The notes under the pieces were generated by a model. The model was not told the origin of the DNA and did no database searches. It was given only the letters and a program-made list of their open reading frames with translations. DNA of 13,240 bases from Candidatus Eiseniibacteriota bacterium (GTDB taxonomy: Bacteria; ARS69), in assembly GCA_052390515.1 (NCBI GenBank), contig JBQTGV010000102.1, forward strand, positions 1-13,240, given 5' to 3'. Positions 364 through 13,240 of this stretch are shown piece by piece (the first letter of the stretch is position 1; every line of letters begins with the position of its first letter). The position numbers were made by a program, and so were the translations under genes.

Positions 364-1173
364 TCAGCTCGGCGCCCCGCAGACGATGACCTCGTGCCCC
401 TCGTCGACCAGGACGTTCCCCTCGAACAGATCCCAGTCGTAGCCGCCCTGCCCGTCGTACACCGCGTCGACCCTCCAGCCCTCCACGACGACGCCGGCCG
501 TACCCGAAGGACAGCCGCCCGCGGACGGCACGGTGAGAGCGGCCGTCCAGGACATGGCGAACGCGAGCTCGCCGCCCGAGCCCTGCCCGGACAGCGCGAA
601 CGACACGCCCACGTCGCCGTCGCCGTCCAGCGTGTACGGGCCGGCGGGCAGACCGGCGACGAGGATGCCCAGCGCGAAGTCCAGCGTGAGATCCAGCGTC
701 GAGCCCTGATCCTGCGCGTGCGCGTCGAGGAAGTAGTCCAGGACGAGTTCCATCGAGGCCGTCGTGGAGTCCGGATTCTGTTGGGAGACCCCGCCCGCAT
801 CACGAAAGCGGATCAGGAAGTACACGTCGTACGAGGCCGTTCCGCTCGAGTCAGTCTCCGTGCCCTCGACGTCCACGACCCACGCGCCCTGCGCCGGATC
901 CCACGCCGCCGCCGCGTCGCGCTGCAGGGTCCCTCCCTCGGGCAGCCCGAGGTCCCCGGAGACGCCACTGAAGTCGCCGGCGGCCATCTCGTCGATGCCG
1001 TCCACGAGCCCGTTCACGAAGTCGAACGTGGCCAGGGCTTGCTCCTGCACGGTCTCGGCGTCGAGCTCGACGTCGTCGCCGGCCCCCGTGGGGCCAGCGT
1101 CCTTTTTGTCGCACCCCCCCGTCACGGCGAAGAGCGCGAGAGCGATGAGCCGGACGAGATCGCTGGTTTTCAT
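364..1173 (-). CDS. Hypothetical acidic exported protein, probable lipoprotein (269 aa)
   Basis: ATG at 1173 preferred over GTG at 1185, with purine-rich GGAAGAA upstream. MKTSDLVRLIALALFAVTGG-C is a signal peptide II-like N-terminus. The Asp/Gly-rich mature part has beta-strand-like segments and strong GC3 bias. Confidence 0.8.
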   Translation of the reverse strand: MKTSDLVRLIALALFAVTGGCDKKDAGPTGAGDDVELDAETVQEQALATFDFVNGLVDGIDEMAAGDFSGVSGDLGLPEGGTLQRDAAAAWDPAQGAWVVDVEGTETDSSGTASYDVYFLIRFRDAGGVSQQNPDSTTASMELVLDYFLDAHAQDQGSTLDLTLDFALGILVAGLPAGPYTLDGDGDVGVSFALSGQGSGGELAFAMSWTAALTVPSAGGCPSGTAGVVVEGWRVDAVYDGQGGYDWDLFEGNVLVDEGHEVIVCGAPS

Positions 1174-1348
1174 CGGTTCTTCCACACAGGGATCGGGGCC
1201 TTCCGGAAGTCATCGGCCTGCATCGACGAGGCCCTGAACCCCGTTGACGGATTCGCCCCGGTATTCCCATCATCCCCCGTTTCTCTGTGTTCCGGGCTCG
1301 TTCGACGGCCGTGCGGGCGGGCCCCTTCGCGTCGAAAAGGAGACGTCG

Positions 1349-2503
1349 GTGCCGATTCCGAGAGGGCTTCTTGCGGTCGCACTCGTCCTGGTGGCCGGCA
1401 GCGTGGCCCACGCCACCCCGCGCTACTCCGCGATCGTCGGACAGGACTGCAACCTGTGCCACATCAACCCCACTGGCGGGGGACTGCGGGACCCCTACTC
1501 GAGTCAGTACCTCCTGCCCACCCGCCTCGCCATGCAGATCGGCGGACGCTCCGACGAGGCGATCGCCAATCCCCAGATCAGCGACGATCTGGTCGTCGGT
1601 GCGGACCTTCGCACCATGTGGCTGTGGCAGGAGAACAAGGACGCTGGGAACAACTTCCGCGCGATGCAGGGATCGCTCTACTTCGCGCTCGGGCTCGGGG
1701 ATCCGCGCTACAAGATCTACGTGCACCAGGAGTTCGGACAGCGGGACGTCAACGTCGAGGCCTTCGGTCTCGCCTACATCCTCCCCGCCAACGGCTACGT
1801 GAAGGCCGGGCGAATCGTGCCCGCGTTCGGCTGGAAGGTGGCGGATCATCGAGCCTTCGCGCGCCGTGACTTCGTCTTCCTGCCGCAGTTCCCCCCGCAC
1901 AGCGACACGGGCGTGGAGATCGGTTTGTATCCCGCGGACTTCACCTTCGAGGCCTCGGTGACCAACGGGCAGTTCCAGAGCCCGGTGGACGCCAACGACA
2001 GCGTGGCGCTGGCCGGGCGGACCTCCTGGAAGTGGACCCGTGAGCCGTTCCACGTCGTCGTGGGCGGCTCGTGGTACCACAACGAGGCCGTCAACGAGGA
2101 TCTGGATGCCGTCGGTCCCCTGGCCGCGGCCCGCTGGGGCCGGCTCCGCTGGTTCGGGGAGGCCGACTGGACCCGCCGGGAAGCGGCTCCCGTGGAAACT
2201 TCGCCCACCGTCTGGGGGTTCGTGACCTCCAACGAGCTCTCCCTCCAGCTCGTCCAGGGACTGGATGTCGTCGCCACGTACGACTTCTACGATCCCGACA
2301 CGGACCTCGAGACGGGTGCGGCGCACCGAATCGGGGTCGGCATGGATGCGCTCGCCCGTTCGTTCGTCCACCTTTCCGCGAAGGTGAACCTCTTCTCCTT
2401 CGACAACGGAGCCACGGTCGAATCGATCTTCGAACCCGGCTCGACCGACGGTACGGTGGACGGATTCACGCAGGCCGAGCTGACCGTTCACTTCCTGTAC
2501 TGA
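1349..2503 (+). CDS. Monoheme cytochrome c / outer-membrane beta-barrel fusion with Cyc2-like architecture (384 aa)
   Basis: GTG at 1349 follows SD AAAAGGAGA. Signal peptide ends ...GSVAHA. The mature N-terminus TPRYSAIVGQDCNLCHINPTGGG has a single CxxCH (1448-1462). The rest has amphipathic beta-strands and the C-terminus ELTVHFLY fits a BAM beta-signal. Confidence 0.82.
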   Translation: MPIPRGLLAVALVLVAGSVAHATPRYSAIVGQDCNLCHINPTGGGLRDPYSSQYLLPTRLAMQIGGRSDEAIANPQISDDLVVGADLRTMWLWQENKDAGNNFRAMQGSLYFALGLGDPRYKIYVHQEFGQRDVNVEAFGLAYILPANGYVKAGRIVPAFGWKVADHRAFARRDFVFLPQFPPHSDTGVEIGLYPADFTFEASVTNGQFQSPVDANDSVALAGRTSWKWTREPFHVVVGGSWYHNEAVNEDLDAVGPLAAARWGRLRWFGEADWTRREAAPVETSPTVWGFVTSNELSLQLVQGLDVVATYDFYDPDTDLETGAAHRIGVGMDALARSFVHLSAKVNLFSFDNGATVESIFEPGSTDGTVDGFTQAELTVHFLY

Positions 2504-2528
2504 GGCACCAGGGAAAGCGAGGGATCCG

Positions 2529-3155
2529 GTGAAGCAGCTGACGATCGCGCTCCTCACGTCGACGACATTCGCCACCGCGGCGCTCGCCGAGCCGTTCCGG
2601 ATCGGACCGGAGGCCGGAGAGTGTCTCGTCGTGTTCGAGTCGAGCGCGCCCATGGAGACGTTCGAGGGACGGACCGGCCGGGTGAGCGGGACCGTGGAGC
2701 TGGATCCGGCCGCGCTCGCGGAGACGCTCGCGCTGACGGTGGAGGTCGACATGGCGAGCCTCGACACCGGCATCGGCATGCGGAACACGCACATGTGCGA
2801 GAACCACCTGCACACCGAGCGCTTTCCCAAGGCGATGTTCACCGCGGCGAAGATCGTCGATGGCGCCGGCGCGAGCCTGCTCGACGGCAGGCCGCACGCG
2901 CTCACCGTGCAGGGCACGATGAACCTGCACGGCGTGACCCGTACCGTGGAGATTCCTCTGCGTCTCACGCGGAGCGAGGGTCCAGGCGGCGCCCGGCTGC
3001 ACATCGAGAGCTCGTTCGAGATCAGCCTCGCCGACTACGAGATCCCGCGGCCGAAGTTCCTGGTGATGAAGCTCAACGAGGTCCAGAAGGTGCGCGTGGA
3101 CCTGTGGGCGGCTCCCGGCGCGCCCGAAGTGGTCGAGCGGGAGGCCGCTTCCTGA
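2529..3155 (+). CDS. yceI: YceI-family periplasmic polyisoprenoid/lipid-binding protein (208 aa)
   Basis: Signal peptide MKQLTIALLTSTTFATAALA. YceI-type motifs are SLDTGIGMRNTHM..LHTERFPKAMF, LTVQGTMNLHGVTRTV and FEISLADYEI. Confidence 0.9.
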   Translation: MKQLTIALLTSTTFATAALAEPFRIGPEAGECLVVFESSAPMETFEGRTGRVSGTVELDPAALAETLALTVEVDMASLDTGIGMRNTHMCENHLHTERFPKAMFTAAKIVDGAGASLLDGRPHALTVQGTMNLHGVTRTVEIPLRLTRSEGPGGARLHIESSFEISLADYEIPRPKFLVMKLNEVQKVRVDLWAAPGAPEVVEREAAS

Positions 3156-5053
3156 TTCGCGGGGCGCTCGCCGCGCTGGCGGCGGCGTCCACCCTCGCCC
3201 CGAGCGCGCCGCCGAGCCCGGCCGCCGCCGATCCGGTCGCGCGCGTCACCGAAGCGCTGGCGGCCCGCGGCTTCGAGAACGTCGTCGTGCAGACCGCCGG
3301 CACGTCGCTGACGGTCTGGTACGAGAACCGCGTCCTGCGGGACGAGCTCGCCGCCATGGGCGAGGTCGCGCGGCTCGTCCTCGATCAGGCGGGCCCGGCG
3401 CGGACGCTTCGCCTCGTCCCCGAGAGCTACGGCGTCCCCACGCTCTCCGTCCGCGCGGCCGCCGCGGACTGGCGCGCTTTCCTGGAGGGCCGTGCCGGAG
3501 CGGAGTGGTTCCGCGGGCGAGTCGAGGTGCTCGCCGCGGACGGTGCTCCGTCGGCGCGGGCCGTGCCGGGCCCCCGAACCCACGCCTCCACCGGGCGATT
3601 CGACCTTCGCCTCCGCCCCCTCTTCGACTTCGAGCTGGGCATCGCCGACGATCCGTTTCGATCGTCCTCGCGGGTGGCGGTGGAGGCAGTCGGGTGCCTC
3701 CTGCCCGGCACCGTGCTGACCCTGCAGCTCCCGGTCCGCGTCCACGACAGCCTGGACTCGTCGACGCCGAGGATCGCGCCGGGGAGGAACACGCTCTCGT
3801 GGGGCGGATGGCTGCCGGGCGGGCTTCTCGGAACGGCCTCCGGTGGCCTCTTCGCCGGGGACCGTTGGGGATTCGGCGGCGAGATCGGCCGACTCGCCGC
3901 GGAGGGCGCTTTCGAGCTGCGCGCCGGCGCGGACTGGACCGGCCTGCTCGACTTCAACCGCGACGTCACGTTCTACAGCAGCCTCGACGCCTGGTCCGGC
4001 TTCGTCGCGCTGACCCATCGCCCGGAGGAGGTCGACCTCGAGGCCACCGTGGCCGTCGCGCGCTTCCTGGATGGAGATCCCGGAGTGCGCGTCGACCTCG
4101 ACCGGCGCTTCCAGGAATCCGAGCTCGGCTTCTTCGTCATCGACACGCGCGTGGATACGGTCCTGGGAGTCACGCTGCGCCTTCCGCTGCCGGCTGCCCG
4201 GCTCCCGCGCCCGTCCCCGGTTCGGCTCGCCACCGTCCCCGAGTTCCCGTTCGAGTACCGGGAATCGCTGAACGAGATCGGCCAGCAGGCCCGGCCCCAC
4301 GACGACCTCGACCGGCTACGCAAACGGCTCTACCCCACGTGGGTACGGAACCAGGTGGGGCGCATGGTCGATCCGGCGGGCCAGCCCGTCCTCCAGCACC
4401 GGAAGGCCGCACCCGCTCCCGGGGCCACCCTCCACGGCATGACCGGCCTGGTGATCGTGCCGACCGCCGCGGTGCTGCCCGACGGCGCCATCCGGTTCGG
4501 AGCCGGCTTCGTGGAGCGAGAGTGGGCCTACCAGGGGCGTGACGACATGGACAACGAGGTCTGGTTCCTCGCCGTCGGCTTCCTGCCGCGCGTCGAGGCC
4601 TCCATCCGGGCGACCGTGCTTCCGGAGCTTTCCCTGCTCGAGGGCCAGGAGGCCCCTGCCGTGGACCGGCTGGCCAGCGCCAGGGTCCTCCTCCTCGAAG
4701 AGCGCGGGCTCCGGCCCGCCGTCGCGGCCGGCATCGATGACGTCCGCGGGACGCGCCTCTACCATTCGCTCTACCTGGTGGGGACGAAGTCGTTCCGGGT
4801 GGGACCGCCGACCTTCCGCGCGACGCTGGGCTACGGGGCCGACCCGATCCAGGCGAACCTCCACGTGCTTCGCGGGGTCTTCGGCGGCGTCGAGGCAGAG
4901 GTCGGCCCGTGGGCTCGCGCGCTGCTTGACTTCGACACGGAAAAGTGGAACTCTGGCGTCGCTCTGACCGCGTTCGGTCGCCTGAGTGCGCAATTCGTTC
5001 TCTTGCATCTGGATACGCCGTCAGGGGCACTCGCGTGGACTCACCGCTTCTAG
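3152..5053 (+). CDS. YjbH/GfcD-like outer-membrane protein (exopolysaccharide / group 4 capsule-associated family); start uncertain (CTG 3152 or GTG 3104)
   Basis: An Ala-rich signal peptide is followed by LAARGFENV..WYENR and then GLFAGDRWGFGGE..ARFLDGDPGVRVDLDRRF. YjbH-type motifs come later: GMTGLVIVPTA, FLPRVEASIR, RPAVAAGIDD..SLYLVGTK, GVFGGVE. C-terminal LAWTHRF is a beta-signal. The part of the ORF before about 3100 overlaps yceI out of frame. Confidence 0.8.
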   Translation: MIRGALAALAAASTLAPSAPPSPAAADPVARVTEALAARGFENVVVQTAGTSLTVWYENRVLRDELAAMGEVARLVLDQAGPARTLRLVPESYGVPTLSVRAAAADWRAFLEGRAGAEWFRGRVEVLAADGAPSARAVPGPRTHASTGRFDLRLRPLFDFELGIADDPFRSSSRVAVEAVGCLLPGTVLTLQLPVRVHDSLDSSTPRIAPGRNTLSWGGWLPGGLLGTASGGLFAGDRWGFGGEIGRLAAEGAFELRAGADWTGLLDFNRDVTFYSSLDAWSGFVALTHRPEEVDLEATVAVARFLDGDPGVRVDLDRRFQESELGFFVIDTRVDTVLGVTLRLPLPAARLPRPSPVRLATVPEFPFEYRESLNEIGQQARPHDDLDRLRKRLYPTWVRNQVGRMVDPAGQPVLQHRKAAPAPGATLHGMTGLVIVPTAAVLPDGAIRFGAGFVEREWAYQGRDDMDNEVWFLAVGFLPRVEASIRATVLPELSLLEGQEAPAVDRLASARVLLLEERGLRPAVAAGIDDVRGTRLYHSLYLVGTKSFRVGPPTFRATLGYGADPIQANLHVLRGVFGGVEAEVGPWARALLDFDTEKWNSGVALTAFGRLSAQFVLLHLDTPSGALAWTHRF

Positions 5054-5137
5054 CGGGATCCGCGTTCCGGGTGCAAAGTGAAGCCGTTGCTCCAAGTCCG
5101 TCCCCGCGGCGAGCAACCATCGATCGGAGAGTCGCCC

Positions 5138-5503
5138 ATGATTCAGTTCGTCACGACTACACGCTCCTTCGCCCTGCCATTGCTCGTGATCGGGCTCGTG
5201 AACCTCGCCGGCATGTCGGAGTGCTCGCGCGTCGGCAGCTCGGTCACGGATCCGGATTCGAGTCCGGAGCTCGGGTCGCCGTCCCGCGACGAGTGCGTCG
5301 AGCAGTGCAACCTCGCGGCGAAGGAGGCACTCCTCGCCGAGGGCGAGCTGCACGACACCAACTTGTTGGAATGCGACGGGGATCCAGCCTGCATCGACCA
5401 GGAGCGTGAACGCCACACGGCGGTGATGCTCGACATTCGCGCGGACTACCGCGAATGCGTCGAGAGCTGCCACGATCAGGGTGGTGGAAGCGGAGGCGAG
5501 TAG
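5138..5503 (+). CDS. Small exported Cys-rich protein, possible lipoprotein (121 aa)
   Basis: ATG at 5138 follows GGAGAG. The hydrophobic N-terminus ends in LAGMSE-C. The mature part has the pattern CxxxC-x21-C-x5-C-x21-CxxxCH. Confidence 0.8.
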   Translation: MIQFVTTTRSFALPLLVIGLVNLAGMSECSRVGSSVTDPDSSPELGSPSRDECVEQCNLAAKEALLAEGELHDTNLLECDGDPACIDQERERHTAVMLDIRADYRECVESCHDQGGGSGGE

Positions 5504-7658
5504 CAGACGACGTCGGATTCCGCATCTCGCGGGGCTCGCCCTCTCGCTGGCTCTCGCGGGGTGCGGAACAGGGGGCGAAGCCCCGGCCGGCGTCGTGCTC
5601 GTCATCGTCGACACGCTCCGCGCGGACCGCCTGGGATGCTCCGGTCATCCTGGCGCCCGCACCCCCGCTCTCGACCGTCTCGCGCGGGCAGGCGCCCAGT
5701 TCCGCGAGACCTTGAGCCACGTCCCCGTCACCGCGCCTTCCGTCGCCACGATCCTCACGGGCACGCTCCCGCCCCATCACGGCGTCCGCGACAACGGGTT
5801 CTTCGTCCTCGGAGACTCGCCGGCCACCCTCGCAGAGGTGTTCGCGCGGGCAGGGTGGGAGACGGCCGCGTTCGTGAGCGCCGCCGTTCTCGAACGGACG
5901 TACGGGTTCGACCGCGGGTACGGCACGTACGACGACGACCTCTCGGCGCCGTTCGCGTTCCACCGCGCCGACCTCGCGCCGATCGAGGCGGAGCACCAGA
6001 ACGTGGAGCGGCGCGGGGCGGACACGACGGAGCGCGCTGCGGCATGGCTGGGGGCAATCGCCGGTACCCCCTGCTTCCTCACCGTGCACCTCTTCGATCC
6101 GCACGATCCGTACGACCCGCCGCCGCCTTCCCACGCCGCGACTGTGGCGCAGCTGTACGACGGAGAGGTGACCGCCGCGGACGCGTGCGTGGAGCAGCTG
6201 CTGCACGCCCTGGCTGAGACCGGGCGCCTCGACCGGACCTGGGTGACGGTCGTCGCCGACCACGGCGAAGGTCTCGGCGAGCACGGTGAGTCCGTGCACG
6301 GCTTCTTCGTGTACGACTCGACGCTGCGCGTGCCGTGGCTCGTGCGCGGCCCGGGTCTGGAAGGCGGACGGATCATCGCGCGCGGTGCGAAGCTCGCCGA
6401 CGTGGCGCCGACCCTGCTCGGTCTCGCCGGCCTCGGGGGCGCGTTCGGCCAGGGCGAGTCACGCGCGGGCGAGCTCCGCAGCGGGATTCCGACGGCCGAC
6501 ACGCAGGCCGGCGGCGGCGTCTACCTCGAGACGTTCCGCACGCTCACGAGCTACGGCTGGAGCGAGCTGGTCGGACTCCGCACCGGCCGGTGGAAGCTGA
6601 TCCGTGCACCCCGGCCGGAGCTGTACGACCTCGCCTCCGACCCTCGTGAGCTCGCGAACCTGCACGGGAGTCTCCCCGACACGGTGCGCGCGCTCTCCGG
6701 CGAACTCGACCTGCTGATCGCCGCGTCGGCGCGTGCGGACGCGCCGGCTCCCTCGCCGATCGACGACGAGACGCGGCGGAGGCTCGAGGCGCTCGGCTAC
6801 CTGTCGGCAGGGACGGAACCCGCGGCGCCAACCGGAGCCCGCATCGATCCGAAGGACGGCGTGGCTGCGTTCGACCGCAGACAGCGGGCGAAGGAGCTCG
6901 TCGTGGCAGGTCGGGCGTTCGCCGCGGGCGGCCGGCCGGACGAGGCCAAGGCTGCGCTGGCGGAGGCGGTCGAGCTGGCGCCGGACTACGGGCCTGTCTG
7001 GTACGAGCTGGGCCAGGTGCAGCGCGGCCTGGGGGACGACGCGACCGCCGAGCGCAGCTTCGCCCGGGCCGTGGAGCTCGACCCCTCGCTCGTGAGGGCG
7101 TGGACCGTGCGCGGCCTCCTGGCCTACGCCGGCCGCCGGGACTCCCTCGCCCACGAGTGCTTCCGCGCGGCGTGGGAACGCGCTCCGGCCCCCTGGACGC
7201 GGCAGAACCTCTTCGAGTTCCTGCTCCGTACGGGGCGGTTCGACGAGGCCGTTCGCTTCGCCGGCGAGGCGGCCGCCCGCGATCCCTCGGACCTCTGGCC
7301 GCGTCATGCGCACGCCTTCGCGCTCGGACGAGCCGGGCGCACCGCCGAGGAGGCCGGGTACTTGAAGAGCGCGCTTCCCGCGGGCGATGCGACGGCGCGC
7401 TTTCGCCTGACCGAGCTGGCCGGCGGCGGCGCGCGTCCCGCCGACCTCGGGGCGGCCATGCAGCAGCTGAACGCGACGGCGGGCGTGTTCCGCGGCTACC
7501 GCGCGCCGCTCTGGCTGGACGTGGCGCGGCATGCCGCGCGCGCCGGTCAGCCCGACGCCGAGGCCTACTACACGAAGGCGCTCGACGACAGCTACGGTGC
7601 CGAGTGGGAAGACGAGGCGGTCGCCGGCGGCGGCAGGCTGATCATGAAGCGGCGCTAG
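5481..7658 (+). CDS. Sulfatase-like alkaline-phosphatase-superfamily hydrolase/transferase lipoprotein with C-terminal TPR repeats (725 aa)
   Basis: Lipobox LALAG-C. Motifs VDTLRADRLG, TAPSVATILTG, HLFDPHDPY, YDGEV, ADHGEGLGEHGE, WKLI..PELYDL..DPRE and RLEALGYL. TPR-like helices include ALAEAVELAPDYGPVWYELG and FARAVELDPSLVRAW. Exact start (GTG 5481 or 5484) is uncertain. Confidence 0.9.
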   Translation: MVEAEASSRRRRIPHLAGLALSLALAGCGTGGEAPAGVVLVIVDTLRADRLGCSGHPGARTPALDRLARAGAQFRETLSHVPVTAPSVATILTGTLPPHHGVRDNGFFVLGDSPATLAEVFARAGWETAAFVSAAVLERTYGFDRGYGTYDDDLSAPFAFHRADLAPIEAEHQNVERRGADTTERAAAWLGAIAGTPCFLTVHLFDPHDPYDPPPPSHAATVAQLYDGEVTAADACVEQLLHALAETGRLDRTWVTVVADHGEGLGEHGESVHGFFVYDSTLRVPWLVRGPGLEGGRIIARGAKLADVAPTLLGLAGLGGAFGQGESRAGELRSGIPTADTQAGGGVYLETFRTLTSYGWSELVGLRTGRWKLIRAPRPELYDLASDPRELANLHGSLPDTVRALSGELDLLIAASARADAPAPSPIDDETRRRLEALGYLSAGTEPAAPTGARIDPKDGVAAFDRRQRAKELVVAGRAFAAGGRPDEAKAALAEAVELAPDYGPVWYELGQVQRGLGDDATAERSFARAVELDPSLVRAWTVRGLLAYAGRRDSLAHECFRAAWERAPAPWTRQNLFEFLLRTGRFDEAVRFAGEAAARDPSDLWPRHAHAFALGRAGRTAEEAGYLKSALPAGDATARFRLTELAGGGARPADLGAAMQQLNATAGVFRGYRAPLWLDVARHAARAGQPDAEAYYTKALDDSYGAEWEDEAVAGGGRLIMKRR

Positions 7659-7695
7659 GGTCCGTCACGAGCGAAGCGTCCACGATGACCACACG

Positions 7696-10083
7696 TCAGA
7701 ACTCGAGCTGGTTCCCCGGAACGGCCTCGGGCGGGGTGAGCAGGAGCGCCTCCCCCGGCCGTCCCGCGATCTCACGCAGGTATCGCCAGGCGTAGCCCTC
7801 GTCCGTGCCGACGTCGCCCAGGGCGGCGCCGAACGACGGCAGCTCGGGGAGGAGCCGCGGGATCCGGAAGCGCCGGCGCGGCGGGTACTCCTCGAGGATC
7901 ACGTCCTCGGGATCGAGGCCGGCCCGCCCGGCGGCTTCCTCCACCGCGTCCAGCAGCGTGCCGAGGTCGTCGCACAGGTTCCTCTCGACGGCATCGCCGC
8001 CCATCCAGATGCGCCCGCCGCCGATCTCGCGGACGCGCCCCGCGTCGAGGCTGCGCGCGGCCGCCACCCGCGCGACGAACTCGCCGTACATGCCCTCGAT
8101 CAGCTCGCGCGCCCGCTCCCGTTCGTCGTCGGAGAGCGGCCGGCCCGGCAGACGCTCGTCCACGAACGGGAAACGGATCCCGGTACGCAGATCCGCGTGC
8201 ACACCGCGCTGCACGCCGCTCGCGGAGAAGCCAGTGCGCTCGCCGACGCCCGCGTCCCACACCCAGCCGGAGATCACGCCGATCGAACCCGTCACGGTGA
8301 GCGGCGTCGTGAAGATGCGGTCCGACTCCATGGAGATCCAGTAGCCGCCCGATGCGGCGACATCGCCCTGACTCACGACGACCGGCTTCTCCTTCTCGCG
8401 GATGCGGCGCATGGCGTCCGCGACGAGGTCGCTGGCCAGGCGGTCGCCGCCGGGCGAGTCCGCGCGCAGCACCACCGCCGCCACGTCCTTCCGTCCGGCG
8501 AGCTTCCGCAGATGTGCCGACGTCGCGCGGCCGCGGATGCCCTCGTCCGTCGCGCAGACGCCCTCGGCGTACACGAGCGCGACGGTCGGCGGCCGGCCCC
8601 AGCGCTCGTCGGGGAAGTCCGACGCGCCCGCGGTCTTCGCCCCGACCACGGCGCCCTGCTTCTTCAAGCTGTCCACCACGTCCGGCCAGCGCGCCAGCTC
8701 GTCGATCAAGCCGGCCTCCTTCGCTTCCGGAGCGCGGAGCATCCCCGGTCCGTCGACGAGGGAATCGAACGCCGCCGGAGAGATACCGCGGCCGTCACAC
8801 ACTCCGCCGCGGATCGTCTCGTAGAGAACGTCCACCTCGCGACCGTACTGCTCGTGGTCGGCGCCGGACATCTCCGTGCGCGAGTACGTCTCCACCGCGG
8901 TCTTGTACGGGAAGAAGCGCAGCTCCTCGAAGCCGAGGCCGAGCTTGTCGAGCAGACCTTTCCAGTACGTGCGGTGCAGGGCGATGCCGGCGAGCTCCAT
9001 CTGCCCGTTGGGATCCATGCTGACGCGGTCCGCCACCGAGGCCAGGTACGCGCCGGACATGCGCACACGATCCACGTGGACACGCACGTTCTTGCCGGCT
9101 TCGCGGAGCGCGGCGAGCTCGGCGCGCAGCTCCCACACCAGGGACGGGCGGAGGCTCGCGCCGGCGAGGTTGAGCACGACGCCCTCGACGGCCGGGTCCC
9201 TCCGAGCGGCACGCAGCCGCCGGCCGACGTCGAGCCAGGCCACGCGGTCGTCGTCGAACCAGAGGTCCTTCTGGTACGAGAGAGTCTTGTCCTCGAGGTC
9301 GATCGGCACCCAGCGGCGTTTCACCGGCCGGTGCAGGCCGCGGTGCGGAGGGTTCGTGCGGACGACCCAGGTCGTCGTGCGGCGATCGCCGTCCTCGAAT
9401 CCGGGCAGGGCGTGCACCGCGAGGCGGTCGAACGTCAGTCCGACGTTGAGCCGCCAGTCGATCCCATCGGCGTCGGTCTCGTCGAGGACGCGCGCGCCGA
9501 CGTGGAGGCCGGAGAATGGACGAAGCTCCACGCCGGCGGACCAGGTACCGTCGTCCGGATGCCGCGGCGCATCCATGAGGGCCCAGTCGGCGAAGAGCGT
9601 GACTCGGGACGTGGCGAAGGGTCGAACGCCGACGTCGGCGACGACCGAGCGGCGGTAGGTCTCGACCGAGGCGAAGCCCGCCGCGCCGAACGAGAGCCAC
9701 TTCGCCGGCCGCTCGATGGTGCCGAGCTCGATGCCGTTCTCGCCGCCGGCGTCACCCGCCGACCAGCGCCAGGCCGCGCCGAAGTGGCGGTGGCGATCGC
9801 CGCGTGCGATCCCGACGCGATAGTCGTGCGCGCCGAGCCGCTGCTCCACCGAAAGGCCGAGGGTGCCGGCGTGCGAGATCCCCCCGTCTTTGTCGTCGTT
9901 CCGCCACACGGAGAGGTCACCGGCGGACGATGTGGCCCAGGCTGCGGGGTTCACGAAACCGCCGAGGGAGCCGGCGGTCACACCGGGCGGCGCGGGCAGC
10001 AGATCCCGGCGGGCGATATCGGAGGCGGCCGCCGGCGCGGCGACCGCGGCGGCGACGGCGACCACGACGACGGTTCGCGTCAC
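7696..10083 (-). CDS. sppA: Signal peptide peptidase SppA (peptidase S49, tandem domains) with an extra N-terminal beta-rich domain (795 aa)
   Basis: GTG at 10083 follows GGAG and lies 2 nt past the upstream stop. Signal peptide MTRTVVVVAVAAAVAAPAAA. S49 motifs are YLASVADRV, YKTAVE (catalytic Lys), RADSPGG, KPVVVSQGDVAASGGYWIS (catalytic Ser at 8350-8352), TGSIGV and GGRIWMG. Confidence 0.9.
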   Translation of the reverse strand: MTRTVVVVAVAAAVAAPAAASDIARRDLLPAPPGVTAGSLGGFVNPAAWATSSAGDLSVWRNDDKDGGISHAGTLGLSVEQRLGAHDYRVGIARGDRHRHFGAAWRWSAGDAGGENGIELGTIERPAKWLSFGAAGFASVETYRRSVVADVGVRPFATSRVTLFADWALMDAPRHPDDGTWSAGVELRPFSGLHVGARVLDETDADGIDWRLNVGLTFDRLAVHALPGFEDGDRRTTTWVVRTNPPHRGLHRPVKRRWVPIDLEDKTLSYQKDLWFDDDRVAWLDVGRRLRAARRDPAVEGVVLNLAGASLRPSLVWELRAELAALREAGKNVRVHVDRVRMSGAYLASVADRVSMDPNGQMELAGIALHRTYWKGLLDKLGLGFEELRFFPYKTAVETYSRTEMSGADHEQYGREVDVLYETIRGGVCDGRGISPAAFDSLVDGPGMLRAPEAKEAGLIDELARWPDVVDSLKKQGAVVGAKTAGASDFPDERWGRPPTVALVYAEGVCATDEGIRGRATSAHLRKLAGRKDVAAVVLRADSPGGDRLASDLVADAMRRIREKEKPVVVSQGDVAASGGYWISMESDRIFTTPLTVTGSIGVISGWVWDAGVGERTGFSASGVQRGVHADLRTGIRFPFVDERLPGRPLSDDERERARELIEGMYGEFVARVAAARSLDAGRVREIGGGRIWMGGDAVERNLCDDLGTLLDAVEEAAGRAGLDPEDVILEEYPPRRRFRIPRLLPELPSFGAALGDVGTDEGYAWRYLREIAGRPGEALLLTPPEAVPGNQLEF

Positions 10084-10085
10084 GT

Positions 10086-11435
10086 CTACTCCACGTAGCC
10101 GAGCGCGCGCAGCCGCTCGGTCAGCTCGGGGCTCGCCGTGTCGAGCTCCCGCACCTGCGCCGCGCCGACCAGCGCGGCCAGCTCGCGGCCGAGCGCGGCT
10201 CCCCGCTCGGCGTTTGCGGCGTTCGCCGGCCCGACGTCGCGCGTTTCGCCCGGATCCCGCGCGAGATCGTACATCGAGAGCGTCCCCTGCGCGGTGTGCG
10301 CGATGACCTTCCAGCGCCCCGACTCCAGCGCCTTCCACGGGCCCATCTCGCTCGGGGCCGCGGCCGGCTCGATCGGCGCGCCGTGGGCGGCGGCCAGCAG
10401 GCTTCGCCCCTGATGCGACGGCGCAGGCGGCAGCCCGAGAGCTTCCAGCACCGTCGGCGCGATGTCCAGGCTCCGCACGGTCTCGCCGACCAGCCGCGGG
10501 GACGCTCCCGGAACGGCGAGGATCAGCGGCACGTGCACCAGCTCGCCGTGCACGGTGTGGGAGTGGAGGAGCGAGCCGTGGTCCCAGAACTCCTCGCCGT
10601 GGTCGGAGGTCACGGCGACGAGCGTCGACTCGTCGAGGCCGCGGGTTTCGAGGAGGCGGGTCAGCCGGCCGAAGCGCACGTCGAGGGCGCGGATTCCCCC
10701 GTCGTACAGCGCGACGAGGTGGCGTCGGTCTGCCTCGTCGAGCGTGGGAGCTTCGCCCCCGTCCAGGCCGCGGAAGGCGCGGCACAGCGCGCGCGTCTCG
10801 GGTCCGGTGACTTTGCCGGCGTAGCCGGGGTCGTAGAGGCGATCGTACGGAGGCGGCGGATCGTACGGGACGTGCGCGTCGTAGCCGTGTAGGAAGGCGA
10901 AGAAGGGTGCGCCTGCGGCCTGGTCGAGGAACGCTCCGAGCTGCTCGACCGACCAGCCGAGGCCGACGTCCGACTCCTCGTAGCGCTCGAAACCGCGGGC
11001 GAAGCCCAGCTCGCCGGCCACGTTGCCGCCGCCGGTGAACGCGACGGCGCGGAGGCCGGCTTCCTGCAGAACCTCGGCGAGCATCGGTAGCTCCGCTCCC
11101 ACCTGCGACGCCGGCCGGGACTGGAACAGTGCGCGGTGGGACGGCAGCGTGGACGCCGCCTGCGCGATGCAGCGCGCGAACTGCGTGCCTCCCCGCGCGA
11201 GGCGGTCGAGGTGCGGTGTCGTGCCGAGCGGGCAGCCGAAGGCGCCGAGCCGGTCGGCGCGGACCGTGTCCAGGGAGACGAGGATGGCGTTCGTGGCGGA
11301 AGGACGCGGCGCGGGTCCACAGGCCGAAGCGCTTATTGCAACTGCCGCAGCGACGGCCGAGGCGGCCGCCGCGGCGATCAGCCGGCATGACGGCCCGCGG
11401 GTGCGCGCGTGGACGGCGGGATTCCTCGGAGGCAT
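10086..11435 (-). CDS. Sulfatase-like alkaline-phosphatase-superfamily lipoprotein (449 aa)
   Basis: Lipobox-like ISASA-C. Motifs SLDTVRADRLG, STLPSHRALF, HGYDAHVPY, LYDGGI, TSDHGEEF..HG, MYDL..DPGE and C-terminal RLRALGYVE. Start codon is uncertain. Confidence 0.9.
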   Translation of the reverse strand: MPPRNPAVHARTRGPSCRLIAAAAASAVAAAVAISASACGPAPRPSATNAILVSLDTVRADRLGAFGCPLGTTPHLDRLARGGTQFARCIAQAASTLPSHRALFQSRPASQVGAELPMLAEVLQEAGLRAVAFTGGGNVAGELGFARGFERYEESDVGLGWSVEQLGAFLDQAAGAPFFAFLHGYDAHVPYDPPPPYDRLYDPGYAGKVTGPETRALCRAFRGLDGGEAPTLDEADRRHLVALYDGGIRALDVRFGRLTRLLETRGLDESTLVAVTSDHGEEFWDHGSLLHSHTVHGELVHVPLILAVPGASPRLVGETVRSLDIAPTVLEALGLPPAPSHQGRSLLAAAHGAPIEPAAAPSEMGPWKALESGRWKVIAHTAQGTLSMYDLARDPGETRDVGPANAANAERGAALGRELAALVGAAQVRELDTASPELTERLRALGYVE

Positions 11436-11506
11436 CGGGGGACTCTAGGTCGGAGCGCGGAGGATTCAAGATCCGATTTCGGACCGGCCCACCGGCGGGG
11501 CGGGCC

Positions 11507-11535
11507 TTGACCCTCAGTATAACCATGGTTATACT
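11507..11535 (+). promoter_or_regulatory. Sigma70-type promoter of the TA operon
   Basis: TTGACC (11507-11512), a 17-nt spacer and TATACT (11530-11535) form an AT-rich patch in GC-rich DNA, ending 6 nt before the antitoxin ATG. Confidence 0.85.
11516..11535. promoter_or_regulatory. Perfect 20-bp palindrome, probable TA autoregulatory operator
   Basis: AGTATAACCA|TGGTTATACT overlaps the spacer and -10 box directly upstream of a ribbon-helix-helix antitoxin gene. Confidence 0.85.
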
Positions 11536-11541
11536 TCGCTC

Positions 11542-11781
11542 ATGAAAACGGCCATCTCGATTCCCGATGACCTGTTCCGGGCGGCCGACCGCGCAGCGAA
11601 GCGGCTTGGGCTCTCGCGGAGCGAGTTCTATCAGCGGGCCATCGCGCGCTTCCTCGACCAGAAGGACGAGGGCCGGATCACGACGGCCTTGGACGAGGTG
11701 TACCGGGACGACCAGCCCGGCGGTCTCGATCCGGCTCTCGACCGGATGCAGCGCGCCAGCCTTCCTCGCGAGCCGTGGTGA
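11542..11781 (+). CDS. mazE: Ribbon-helix-helix (CopG-like) antitoxin, MazE6-like (79 aa)
   Basis: MKTAISIPDDLF..ADRAAKRLGLSRSEFYQRAIARFL is an RHH signature. The protein ends in Trp, and its stop overlaps the toxin GTG. Confidence 0.88.
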   Translation: MKTAISIPDDLFRAADRAAKRLGLSRSEFYQRAIARFLDQKDEGRITTALDEVYRDDQPGGLDPALDRMQRASLPREPW

Positions 11782-12115
11782 TCCGCGGCGAGATCTGTGG
11801 GCGGACCTGGCCGAGCCCCGCGGCTCGGAGCCCGGCTACCGGCGGCCGGTCGTCGTGATCCAGTCGGACTCCTTCAATCGGAGTCGGATCGGAACCGTCG
11901 TCGTGGCGGTGGTGACCTCCAACGTGGACTTGGCCGCGGCACCCGGCAACGTCCGTCTGAAGCGGCGGGAAAGCAAGCTGCCACGGGAATCAGCCGTGAA
12001 CGTGTCGCAGATCCTCACGCTGGACCGTCGGCTCCTGACCGAGCGGGTAGGGAAGCTGCCGGCGACGGTTCTGGGCGAGGTGGAGGCCGGCCTGCGGCTC
12101 GTTCTGGCACTGTAG
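11775..12115 (+). pseudogene. mazF: MazF/PemK endoribonuclease toxin, frameshifted by a 1-nt deletion at about 11796-11798 (or a sequencing error)
   Basis: GTG GTG ATC CGC GGC GAG ATC (MVIRGEI) is out of frame with the MazF body WADLAEPRGSEPGYRRPVVVIQSDSFN..VTSN..APGNV..SAVNVSQILTLDR..GLRLVLAL*. Adding one base (ATC TG[G] TGG) restores GEIWWADL. Confidence 0.82.
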
Positions 12116-12429: not shown

Positions 12430-13240
12430 ATGCCCGAACTCCCCGAAGTCGAGACGATCGCGCGCGGGATCGAGGCCGTCGTCGGCCAGGAGATCGCCGC
12501 CGTCGTGCTGGGCAAGCACGACTGGGTGCGCTTTCCGCCGCCGTCGGCCAAGGCGCATCTCGTGGGACGGCGGATCGGCGCCGTGCAACGCCGGGGCAAG
12601 CAGATCCGCATCGTGCTCGAGCCGGAGGGCAGCATCGTCGTGCGGCTCGGCATGACCGGGCAGATCACGCTCTCGCCTTCGGGGGAGCCGGCGGCGCCGC
12701 ACACGCACCTTCGCCTCCGCCTCGCCGGGAACGGCCATGAGCTCCGCTTCCGCGACGCGCGCCGCTTCGGCGGCGTCTGGATCCGGCGGACGGAGAGCGA
12801 CCCCGCGCCGGATCTCCCCGGGCCGGACGCGCTCGACGTGGGGCTCGCCGAGTTCCGCGCGCTCCTCGCGCGGCCGCGGCAGGTGAAGGCGCTCCTGCTC
12901 GATCAGCGCGTCCTCTCCGGCGTCGGGAACATCTACGCCGACGAGTCGCTCTTCGCCGCGCGCATCCATCCGAAGGCCGTGGCGGCGAGGCTCGCGCCGG
13001 GCCGCGTGCGCGACCTGCACCGCGCGCTTCGCCGGATCCTCCGCCGCGCGATCGCCGACGGCGGCTCGACGCTGCGGGACTACCTCGACGCCGGCGGGAA
13101 CCCCGGCGACTTCCAGACCCGGCACCGGGTCTACGGGCGGGAGGGGGAGCCGTGTCCGCGGTGCGGCGCGACGATCCGGAGGATCCAGGCGGCGGGGCGG
13201 TCGTCGCATGTGTGTGGGAGGTGTCAGCGGGGGCCGCGCA
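12430..13240 (+). CDS. mutM: Formamidopyrimidine-DNA glycosylase Fpg/MutM, 3' end runs off the window (hence missing from the ORF track)
   Basis: Translated by hand: MPELPEVETIARG, RRGK, LGMTG, FRDARRFG, H2TH KALLLDQRVLSGVGNIYADESLF..IHP, and zinc finger VYGREGEPCPRCG..GRSSHVCGRCQ. No stop codon within the window. Confidence 0.97.
   Translation, partial: MPELPEVETIARGIEAVVGQEIAAVVLGKHDWVRFPPPSAKAHLVGRRIGAVQRRGKQIRIVLEPEGSIVVRLGMTGQITLSPSGEPAAPHTHLRLRLAGNGHELRFRDARRFGGVWIRRTESDPAPDLPGPDALDVGLAEFRALLARPRQVKALLLDQRVLSGVGNIYADESLFAARIHPKAVAARLAPGRVRDLHRALRRILRRAIADGGSTLRDYLDAGGNPGDFQTRHRVYGREGEPCPRCGATIRRIQAAGRSSHVCGRCQRGPR

Follow-up and report, generated by a model that had tools for sequence, protein, structure and literature searches.

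A predicted Cyc2-like cytochrome-porin with a near-obligate YceI-family partner across many bacterial phyla

What does an exported YceI protein do when its gene stands directly behind that of an outer-membrane heme protein? This question is raised by two genes in a 13,240-nucleotide stretch of DNA from Candidatus Eiseniibacteriota (assembly GCA_052390515.1, contig JBQTGV010000102.1), and we refer to this whole stretch as the window. The first gene encodes P0001, a putative cytochrome-porin, and the second encodes P0002, a member of the YceI family. A first-pass annotation of the window had proposed that the YceI protein partners an outer-membrane heme and could ferry a quinone or isoprenoid across the periplasm, a lipid-shuttle route unlike the heme wires of the Mtr/Mto type. 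We find that the pairing of porin and YceI is near-obligate and is kept across many bacterial phyla. Our preferred reading, to which we give a probability of roughly 0.4, is that of a dedicated cassette in which a Cyc2-like porin works with a YceI protein that would present a bound lipophilic molecule to the porin heme, beside a cytochrome c. That the two proteins form a functional unit is by itself very probable. The features of the pair on which the argument turns are the following.

1349..2503, forward strand: porin gene P0001, with a GTG start, GGAG 8 nt upstream and a translation of 384 residues
1448..1483, forward strand: heme c attachment site and family signature CNLCH-I-NPTGGG, residues 34-45 of P0001
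2529..3155, forward strand: YceI gene P0002, with a translation of 208 residues (Pfam PF04264)

The first-pass annotation had placed an exported YceI gene 25 bp behind the cytochrome-porin gene, and these coordinates are exact: the intergenic gap runs from 2504 to 2528, and P0002 matches PF04264 with an E value of 1.8e-21 (77.5 bits against a cut-off of 23.7). The neighborhood survey that the annotation had suggested also bears the pairing out. A one-genome-per-species scan returned 386 stretches with a porin relative, and the best 80, all from metagenome-assembled genomes, were analyzed. By the names in the sequence records these loci belong to Eisenbacteria, Krumholzibacteriota, Gemmatimonadota, Fibrobacterota, Zixibacteria, Ignavibacteriota, Bacteroidota, Calditrichota, Verrucomicrobiota and Latescibacterota. 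Using tblastn with P0002 we found a YceI homolog in 50 of the 80 porin loci; five of the 30 loci without one end less than 300 bp past the porin gene, which leaves 75 informative loci and a proportion of 50/75. The YceI gene lies directly downstream on the same strand in 48 loci and upstream on the opposite strand in two (L033 and L038). From porin stop to YceI start the median distance is 37 bp (n = 47), and 40 loci do not exceed 100 bp, a negative distance at L054 being an artifact of a fragmented porin match.

In the reverse direction, we searched metagenomes with the motif R-[ND]-x-H-M-[RC]-[ED]-[ND]-H as seed and analyzed 80 of the 221 confirmed relatives. A porin gene was present at 70 of the 71 informative YceI-seeded loci. 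It lies upstream on the same strand in 69 of the 80, within 219 bp in 68 of these and at 2568 bp in the remaining one (L152), and it lies downstream at L151; nine of the 80 loci have less than 600 bp of upstream sequence and no match. Since the seed motif came from porin-linked copies, what this test shows is that a YceI protein of this type is almost never found away from the porin.

Both genes were also counted in the genomes of two phyla. In the window's own phylum, with its 12 species genomes, ten genomes have a porin match at E ≤ 1e-10. All nine genomes with a full-length, high-scoring porin have a YceI gene of 199-253 bits immediately downstream, a tenth such YceI gene (genome G008) lies at a contig start, and the other YceI paralogs score at most 66 bits. 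Genome G001, which is 100% complete, has neither the porin nor the YceI partner. The second sample comprised 41 genomes from the phylum of locus L022, of which 36 have a porin-family match. Here the 11 genomes with a porin of at least 361 bits are exactly those with a YceI gene of 235-265 bits directly downstream on the same strand, and the 25 genomes with a weaker porin (110-223 bits) contain no YceI match at E ≤ 1e-20 except a 92.6-bit copy on another contig in G027; G031, which belongs to these 25, carries an unpublished flag. Chance adjacency of porin and YceI is ruled out by the forward, reverse and whole-genome counts. No publication describing the porin-YceI pair was found in literature searches, and what is new here is the family signature and the near-obligate YceI partner of a Cyc2-type cytochrome-porin system.

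The distribution of the link over the porin family was viewed on a quick maximum-likelihood tree of 79 porins (unrooted, with two fragments dropped). A 48-row clade with a support of 100 consists of 44 YceI-linked rows, two cut loci, L029 and L013. The other side of the tree holds the cupredoxin, cytochrome-only and Ignavibacteria groups plus seven YceI-linked rows. The YceI-link label needs at least five changes on this tree, which indicates that the link is old and has been lost or replaced several times.

What kind of protein is P0001? Judged by eye, its N-terminus resembles a signal peptide (residues 1-22, ending in VAGSVAHA before TPRY), and this is followed by a heme-binding segment at approximately residues 23-80, a beta-barrel at residues 81-383 and the C-terminal end HFLY. 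After the signal peptide the sequence reads P-R-Y-S-A-I-V-G-Q-D-C-N-L-C-H-I-N-P-T-G-G-G-L-R, and its CNLCH is the sole CxxCH in the six frames of the entire window. C34, C37, H38, P41, G43, G44, G45 and R47 are invariant among 29 aligned porin relatives. In a set of 213 relatives, 195 have a CxxCH inside their first 140 residues, only two have more than one, and the 18 without it appear N-terminally truncated. Taken together, the 195 give the heme-site consensus A-x-P-R-[YFL]-[AS]-[AV]-R-[YT]-G-Q-x-C-x-L-C-H-V-N-P-T-G-G-G-x-R-x-x-[YF], and 150 of them contain CxxCHx[NDS]P[TSAN]GGG.

Neither Pfam nor NCBIfam holds a family that scored above cut-off for P0001, and a PDB sequence search with P0001 returned just short heme-motif matches and no solved relative. 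A word-indexed search found 65 clusters of relatives, all labeled 'hypothetical' or nameless; in the ESM Atlas the clusters are likewise unnamed, the nearest named family being Porin_O_P with 20% of members. An exhaustive profile search nevertheless counts 3588 representatives of the porin family (50% identity) at E ≤ 0.001 and 563 at E ≤ 1e-30. By the taxa named in the sequence records, the carriers are mostly uncultured members of phyla of the Fibrobacteres-Chlorobi-Bacteroidetes (FCB) group from soil and sediment.

AlphaFold2, given the 29-row alignment, models P0001 with a pLDDT of 82.8 and a pTM of 0.82 as a barrel of 16 strands over residues 81-383, preceded by a helical segment that bears the heme site. 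The PDB structures that Foldseek matches to this model are 16-strand general porins, with top TM-scores of 0.60 for OprP (2o4v) and 0.59 for OprO (4rjw). Candidate sixth heme ligands conserved in the family are M106, H167 and H381, and in the model H167 is located in the long loop joining strands 5 and 6. In 16-strand porins a long loop of this type forms the constriction. The CxxCH and the modeled barrel agree with the outer-membrane heme porin of the first-pass annotation and suggest that P0001 is probably a fused monoheme cytochrome-porin of the outer membrane. We consider it likely to be a redox porin.

The closest known design is that of Cyc2, for which PMC8406198 gives a signal peptide, a single CXXCH and a porin of 16 strands, with OprO/OprP named as templates. 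P0001 is like Cyc2 in having a signal peptide, a single N-terminal CxxCH and an OprO/OprP-like 16-strand barrel, as well as a length in the range of ~380-450 residues (P0001, with 384, lies within the Cyc2 criterion of at least 365). Common to both are, in addition, a conserved A-x-P-x-aromatic-A..R stretch immediately N-terminal to the heme site and, in relatives, small periplasmic cytochromes or cupredoxins as partners. The two differ in the motifs by which Cyc2 has been defined. The definition given in PMC8406198 includes A-X-P-X-F-A-R-[Q/K]-[T/Y] before the heme site and P-X-L four residues past CXXCH, and by that account sequences lacking the upstream motif were excluded from the Cyc2 screen. 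In contrast, P-x-F-A-R-[QK]-[TY] occurs in 0/195 relatives of the porin family (P0001 has P-R-Y-S-A-I-V), and CxxCH-4-P-x-L occurs in 0/195 with spacings of 2-5 included, N-P-T-G-G-G being present instead. A looser P-x-[FY]-[AS]-x-R-[QKYT] is matched by 52 of the 195, and the upstream stretch of the family resembles the Cyc2 motif once one extra residue is allowed. Because the Cyc2 motifs are absent, the case for homology of P0001 with Cyc2 is one of architecture and of a motif that is loosely alike. We treat P0001, on this comparison of sequence and model, as a Cyc2-like design in a separate large sister family that the published motifs set apart.

Fe(II) oxidation is the activity of Cyc2, and for the NPTGGG family it is a candidate activity at most. 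Cyc2 carriers named in PMC8406198 are Acidithiobacillus, Zetaproteobacteria and Gallionellaceae, whereas those of the NPTGGG family are mostly FCB-group bacteria. No publication naming Cyc2 together with YceI was found, and in the passages of PMC8478452 that mention Cyc2 it appears just as FeGenie calls. Cyc2 is the main genome marker for iron oxidation, and the published motif screen would drop the NPTGGG family; the finding would change the reading of 'Cyc2-like' metagenome matches.

How does P0002 compare with other YceI proteins? Its N-terminus is signal-peptide-like, ending in AALA before EP. It has no Cys lipobox and is taken as soluble in the periplasm for that reason; all extracted partners likewise start with a signal-peptide-like stretch and have no lipobox. 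The score of P0002 against the NCBIfam YceI equivalog is 47.3 bits, far under the cut-off of 232, which makes it a member of the YceI family but not an E. coli-type ortholog. PDB sequence matches are E. coli YceI (1y0g), 5ixg, the X158 structures 2x32/2x34 and TT1927b (1wub). The 39 porin-linked partners are 34-54% identical to P0002 and have in common F36, S38, G47, T49, G54, T80, R85, M89, H93, P100, G129, H134, G135, I172, R174, P175, L178, L182 and Q186. Three of these residues lie in the subfamily motif:

2781..2807, forward strand: subfamily motif R-N-x-H-M-[RC]-E-N-H, residues 85-93 of P0002, with R85, M89 and H93 invariant in the 39 partners

Seven ordinary YceI paralogs from the same genomes depart from this pattern. 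Six of the seven have L and F in the M89 and H93 columns, most have H and F where the partners have A40 and T49, and the conserved C-terminal I-x-R-P-x-F-L-x-x-K-L-x-x-x-Q of the partners is missing from them. Scored with a subfamily profile, porin-linked copies reach 199-265 bits and other YceI paralogs at most 93 bits in the two phylum samples. These sequence features place P0002 in a YceI subfamily that is specific to the porin. Possible roles of M89 and H93 are the binding of a metal or heme, or a position facing the porin. A YceI domain in a longer frame was seen in Gemmatimonadales (L004, 7103-8767), where it occupies residues 57-207 of a 555-residue open frame; the remainder has no Pfam match and no CxxCH and could either extend the protein at its C-terminus or be a run-on caused by high GC.

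Are the two proteins in contact? We predicted a complex of the mature porin and the mature YceI protein, each with its alignment and with heme included, in three runs. The interface score (ipSAE) was 0.52 in two of the three runs and 0.00 in run 1, with 0.00 for the best control; the runs share at least 33% of contacts, and the pLDDT of the partner is at least 77. Overall, this prediction supports docking weakly. In a benchmark of the ipSAE mark, 58 of 80 solved complexes and 2 of 110 mismatched pairs passed, and passes at or below 0.60 came from 7 of the 80 solved complexes and from both passing mismatches. Of 14 porin positions specific to YceI-linked copies, eight fall in the heme segment (residues 26-59). 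Linked and unlinked porins are also clades, so this clustering may only reflect descent.

A contact of this kind would also suit a YceI protein that has no redox role and no quinone, namely a dedicated periplasmic chaperone that keeps the heme segment or the unfolded barrel soluble until insertion, or a fixed subunit that closes the pore off on its periplasmic side. In favor of such a helper are the tight one-to-one linkage across short gaps, the conserved positions at which the subfamily departs from ordinary YceI, its additional conserved segment at the C-terminus and the clustering of linked-copy-specific porin positions in the heme segment; the complex prediction lends weak support (ipSAE 0.52 in two of three runs, where a pass at or below 0.60 is more often wrong than right). 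We nevertheless consider a helper improbable, as 25 informative loci have a related porin without YceI, the YceI fold is known to bind lipids, and Cyc2 proteins were made in the E. coli outer membrane without a YceI-like helper, as reported in passages of PMC13692758.

The first-pass annotation set the proposed YceI route apart from heme wires and had noted no periplasmic multiheme or copper protein in the window. Within the window this holds: we find one CxxCH and no match to the cupredoxin family PF00127 on the window's contig, the two matches in the genome lying on contigs C202 and C8. The relatives give a different picture. Clustering of all open reading frames of the 80 porin loci yielded a third recurrent gene, a monoheme class-I cytochrome c that we call the A3-type. 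It has an invariant CxxCH, M-P and W, matches the Pfam families PSCyt1/Cytochrome_CBB3 and often has TIG/Ig-like domains at its N-terminus. In YceI-linked loci it is a predicted lipoprotein, with a G-C-[SA]-D lipobox at the end of the signal peptide, whereas no such lipobox is present in the YceI-less loci of Bacteroidota and Ignavibacteria. A domain profile detects the A3-type cytochrome no more than 3 kb from the porin in 49 of the 80 loci, namely 36 of the 50 with a linked YceI and 13 of the remaining 30. It is found directly after YceI, in the usual order porin-YceI-cytochrome, or directly before the porin. Among the YceI-seeded metagenome loci, 80 in all, 18 have it after YceI, 17 ahead of the porin and one elsewhere; 31 do not have it, and 13 are cut.

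The window and its nearest relatives (L003, L005-L008 and L010) belong to the minority without a nearby A3-type cytochrome, and at L002 it lies 3.8 kb downstream. A TIG-cytochrome of the L002 type found no match in the window's genome when used as a single-protein query; the domain profile then found four, on contigs C77, C104, C72 and, weakly, C5, and none on the window's contig. The same genome encodes two heme-copper oxidase subunit I genes plus cytochrome c maturation genes. Where YceI is missing, an A3-type cytochrome directly follows the porin at L029, L052, L058, L060, L063, L067, L068, L070 and L074, which L027 joins by domain profile.

Other redox genes recur near the porin. A cupredoxin directly follows it in the Zixibacteria loci L040 and L053. 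Four YceI-linked loci have tandem cytochrome P460 proteins of 317-360 residues, with two CxxCH and two P460 domains, just upstream of the porin (L036, 4760-5842; L044, 4945-5931; L045, 4699-5730, reverse strand; L050, 4893-5846, reverse strand). The cytochrome partners in porin relatives are monoheme proteins or diheme P460 proteins. Crp-family regulators stand near the porin in L042 and L056, and hybrid sensor kinases likewise recur. In the Zixibacteria genome G016 the porin on contig C7 is followed by a cupredoxin, a YceI gene is located at 5907-6503 of contig C156, and there is no second porin match in the genome. Several cassettes stand beside proteins of ~280-296 residues with one CxxCH and a FlgD-Ig or type IX sorting tail (L050, 8215-9096; L051, 8107-8952; L066, 8112-8957; L057, 4986-5867; L019, 4063-4950; and L033, 5072-5953, in which the CxxCH was not found), which may be cell-surface cytochromes. 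L011, L015 and L018 instead have 900-residue beta-propeller proteins with two CxxCH and the same type IX tail.

As a cytochrome c lies near 36 of 50 pairs and a cytochrome or cupredoxin follows YceI-less porins, YceI most likely acts beside a heme carrier and not instead of one. These neighbors fit a redox porin in electron exchange with small carriers of the periplasm, the arrangement proposed for Cyc2, and do not fit a route in which a lipid replaces the heme carriers. The proposal of a lipid shuttle in place of heme wires runs against both the cytochrome c genes of the linked relatives and the A3-type cytochromes on other contigs of the window's genome. A shuttle would have YceI load menaquinol at the inner membrane, cross the periplasm and trade electrons with the porin heme; it would form a heme-poor, lipid-carried path in many FCB-group phyla, unlike every described conduit, and the 14 of 50 linked loci without a cytochrome c within 3 kb, the window included, would be its minimal form. 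We regard this shuttle as quite unlikely.

The described conduits MtrCAB, PioAB/MtoAB and Geobacter Pcc resemble the present system in combining an outer-membrane barrel with heme proteins for electron passage. In them, multiheme cytochromes are threaded through larger barrels. The present system has one heme fused to a 16-strand barrel and no multiheme protein in the window.

The nearest parallels for a YceI protein beside a cytochrome lie elsewhere. The first-pass annotation's statement that YceI proteins bind quinone-type lipids and adjoin cytochrome b561 is in line with two sources. According to PMC9113575, the YceI-family protein GNA1030 binds ubiquinone-8 and bcnA/yceI is linked to cytochrome b561; PMC8981238 reports a YceI-like X158 domain fused to c-type cytochrome domains in Cbp2D, with ubiquinone-8 in one of two X158 structures. 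LcoA-BcnA and E. coli YceJ-YceI resemble the present pair in their gene linkage, which joins an exported YceI protein to a membrane cytochrome, and in the LcoA-BcnA model of PMC9113575 the quinone on the lipocalin is recycled by the cytochrome. They differ in both partners. LcoA is an inner-membrane diheme b561, whereas P0001 is a predicted outer-membrane c-type monoheme barrel, and P0002 falls in a YceI subfamily of its own (199-265 bits against at most 93 for other YceI paralogs in the two phylum samples). No b561 family is among the Pfam matches of the 13 open reading frames of the window.

Cbp2D and Cbp2E of Cellvibrio and Saccharophagus (PMC8981238, PMC12542752) are alike in combining a YceI-fold quinone module with monoheme c-type cytochromes outside the cytoplasm, and those sources suspect a role in electron transfer. 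As described there, they are secreted, consist of several domains that include cellulose-binding modules, and act in polysaccharide oxidation; P0001 and P0002, in contrast, are separate proteins with no carbohydrate-binding module, and the partner is a porin.

The LcoA-BcnA likeness raises the possibility that the pair is an outer-membrane counterpart of that system, an envelope antioxidant unit in which YceI carries a quinol or traps lipid peroxyl radicals or aldehydes, the heme porin re-reduces or re-oxidizes its cargo, and the pair protects the outer membrane and does not serve respiration. PMC9113575 describes bcnA as linked to a membrane cytochrome b561 in many Gram-negative bacteria and proposes that the cytochrome recycles the quinone, and P0001 and P0002 repeat this combination of a membrane cytochrome with an exported YceI protein. 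We think an antioxidant unit unlikely, as P0001 is not a b561, ordinary YceI paralogs in the same genomes could fill the BcnA role, and the neighbors (cytochrome c at 49 of 80 loci, cupredoxin, P460, Crp-family and type IX-sorted heme proteins) point more to an electron-transfer chain.

The preferred reading is the dedicated cassette. Its gene pair, conservation, fold, heme motif and redox neighbors are shown above, and for it we infer localization, docking, ligand and redox exchange as follows. Porin and YceI would form the outer-membrane end of an envelope electron-transfer route that includes the monoheme class-I cytochrome c in most relatives, here encoded elsewhere in the genome. The heme-bearing N-terminal segment would enter the 16-strand barrel from the periplasmic side; passages of PMC13692758 likewise expect the Cyc2 heme on the periplasmic side of the barrel and call its periplasmic carriers unidentified. 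The porin heme would exchange electrons with a small substrate entering the pore and also with periplasmic partners at the periplasmic mouth of the barrel. YceI would dock at this mouth and present a lipophilic molecule, most likely an isoprenoid quinone, to the heme, acting beside cytochrome c rather than in its place. With small periplasmic carriers beside it, a Cyc2-like porin would be suited to taking up electrons from an external donor such as Fe(II). Menaquinol, which has a low potential, would instead suit outward flow or peroxide removal.

That YceI is a quinone-bearing redox partner of the porin is a tentative proposal that we hold as possible but doubtful. If the partner does carry a redox lipid, YceI would have been coupled independently to a cytochrome for the third time, the other cases being b561 and Cbp2D, and the long-unclear YceI family would gain a general role as a quinone-presenting module. 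A large sister family has, in any case, a near-obligate partner of a fold known for quinone binding.

Several observations weigh against the cassette reading. At 25 informative loci the porin stands without YceI, which indicates that the porin can work without it. L142, a metagenome locus, has the YceI gene without a porin in 1479 bp upstream, and in the Zixibacteria genome G016 a YceI gene of the porin-linked type (180 bits) and the sole porin gene are on separate contigs. None of the 195 relatives shows the published Cyc2 motifs. Among longer proteins, no fusion of YceI to a cytochrome or porin was found at E ≤ 1e-10, which is weak evidence. In the modeled complex, an ipSAE of 0.52 lies in a band that is more often wrong than right unless the complex was likely beforehand, and one run gave 0.00, so that the prediction argues only weakly for docking.

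A group of nine Ignavibacteria loci (L061, L071-L073, L075, L076 and L078-L080) has a different set of genes on the same strand 100-290 bp after the porin, comprising a type III polyketide synthase, an ICMT-family methyltransferase, a glyoxalase-fold protein and a 163-residue unknown; all nine form one narrow clade. Such synthase-methyltransferase pairs presumably make phenolic lipids (alkylresorcinols or alkylpyrones). At L047, a locus without YceI, a UbiA-family prenyltransferase (7222-8082, reverse strand) is convergent to the porin, 10 bp past it. These genes, together with the binding of polyisoprenoids by YceI, would be in keeping with lipid traffic, in which the barrel is a channel for an isoprenoid, quinone or phenolic lipid ferried by YceI and the heme senses or modifies the lipid; this corresponds to the redox-gated lipid transport named in the first-pass annotation. 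General 16-strand porins, however, pass small hydrophilic solutes, the recurrent partners are electron carriers, and the polyketide neighbors, confined to one narrow clade at 100-290 bp, may be coincidental. We judge lipid traffic very unlikely.

How far does the cassette extend in the window? The GC content of the window is high (66-75%). Between the porin gene and the YceI gene, and again ahead of the next gene, there is no terminator-like site, and a promoter scan of 800-5600 returned one site, against a mean of 0.1 in shuffles:

1244..1273, forward strand: promoter-like sigma-70 match TTGACG-18-CATCAT, 76 bp 5' of the porin start, with a weak match to consensus

Neither flanking gene could be retained as a member of the module. 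The upstream open reading frame (364-1185, reverse strand) has no Pfam family and has a homolog in only 2 of 80 loci, and the downstream YjbH-like gene (3107-5053) has a homolog in 0 of 80.

The latter encodes, on the forward strand, a YjbH/GfcD-like outer-membrane protein (PF06082, E 4.7e-35) of ~648 residues that ends in THRF, and its likely GTG start overlaps the final 49 bp of the YceI gene. It is followed at 5481-7658 (forward strand) by a 725-residue protein in which a sulfatase domain (PF00884, E 8.7e-39) is fused to C-terminal TPR repeats. A 1276-residue open frame occupies 7696-11526 on the reverse strand with SppA (S49) domains confined to its last ~500 residues; the long stretch ahead of them may be a true extension of the protein or a run-on caused by high GC. 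At 11567-12115 (forward strand) a 182-residue frame has a MazF/PemK-like toxin domain at residues 78-180, its true start is probably later, and a small upstream antitoxin reading frame is possible. The next gene, at 12430-13239 on the forward strand, encodes a formamidopyrimidine-DNA glycosylase (Fpg) and extends to the end of the window.

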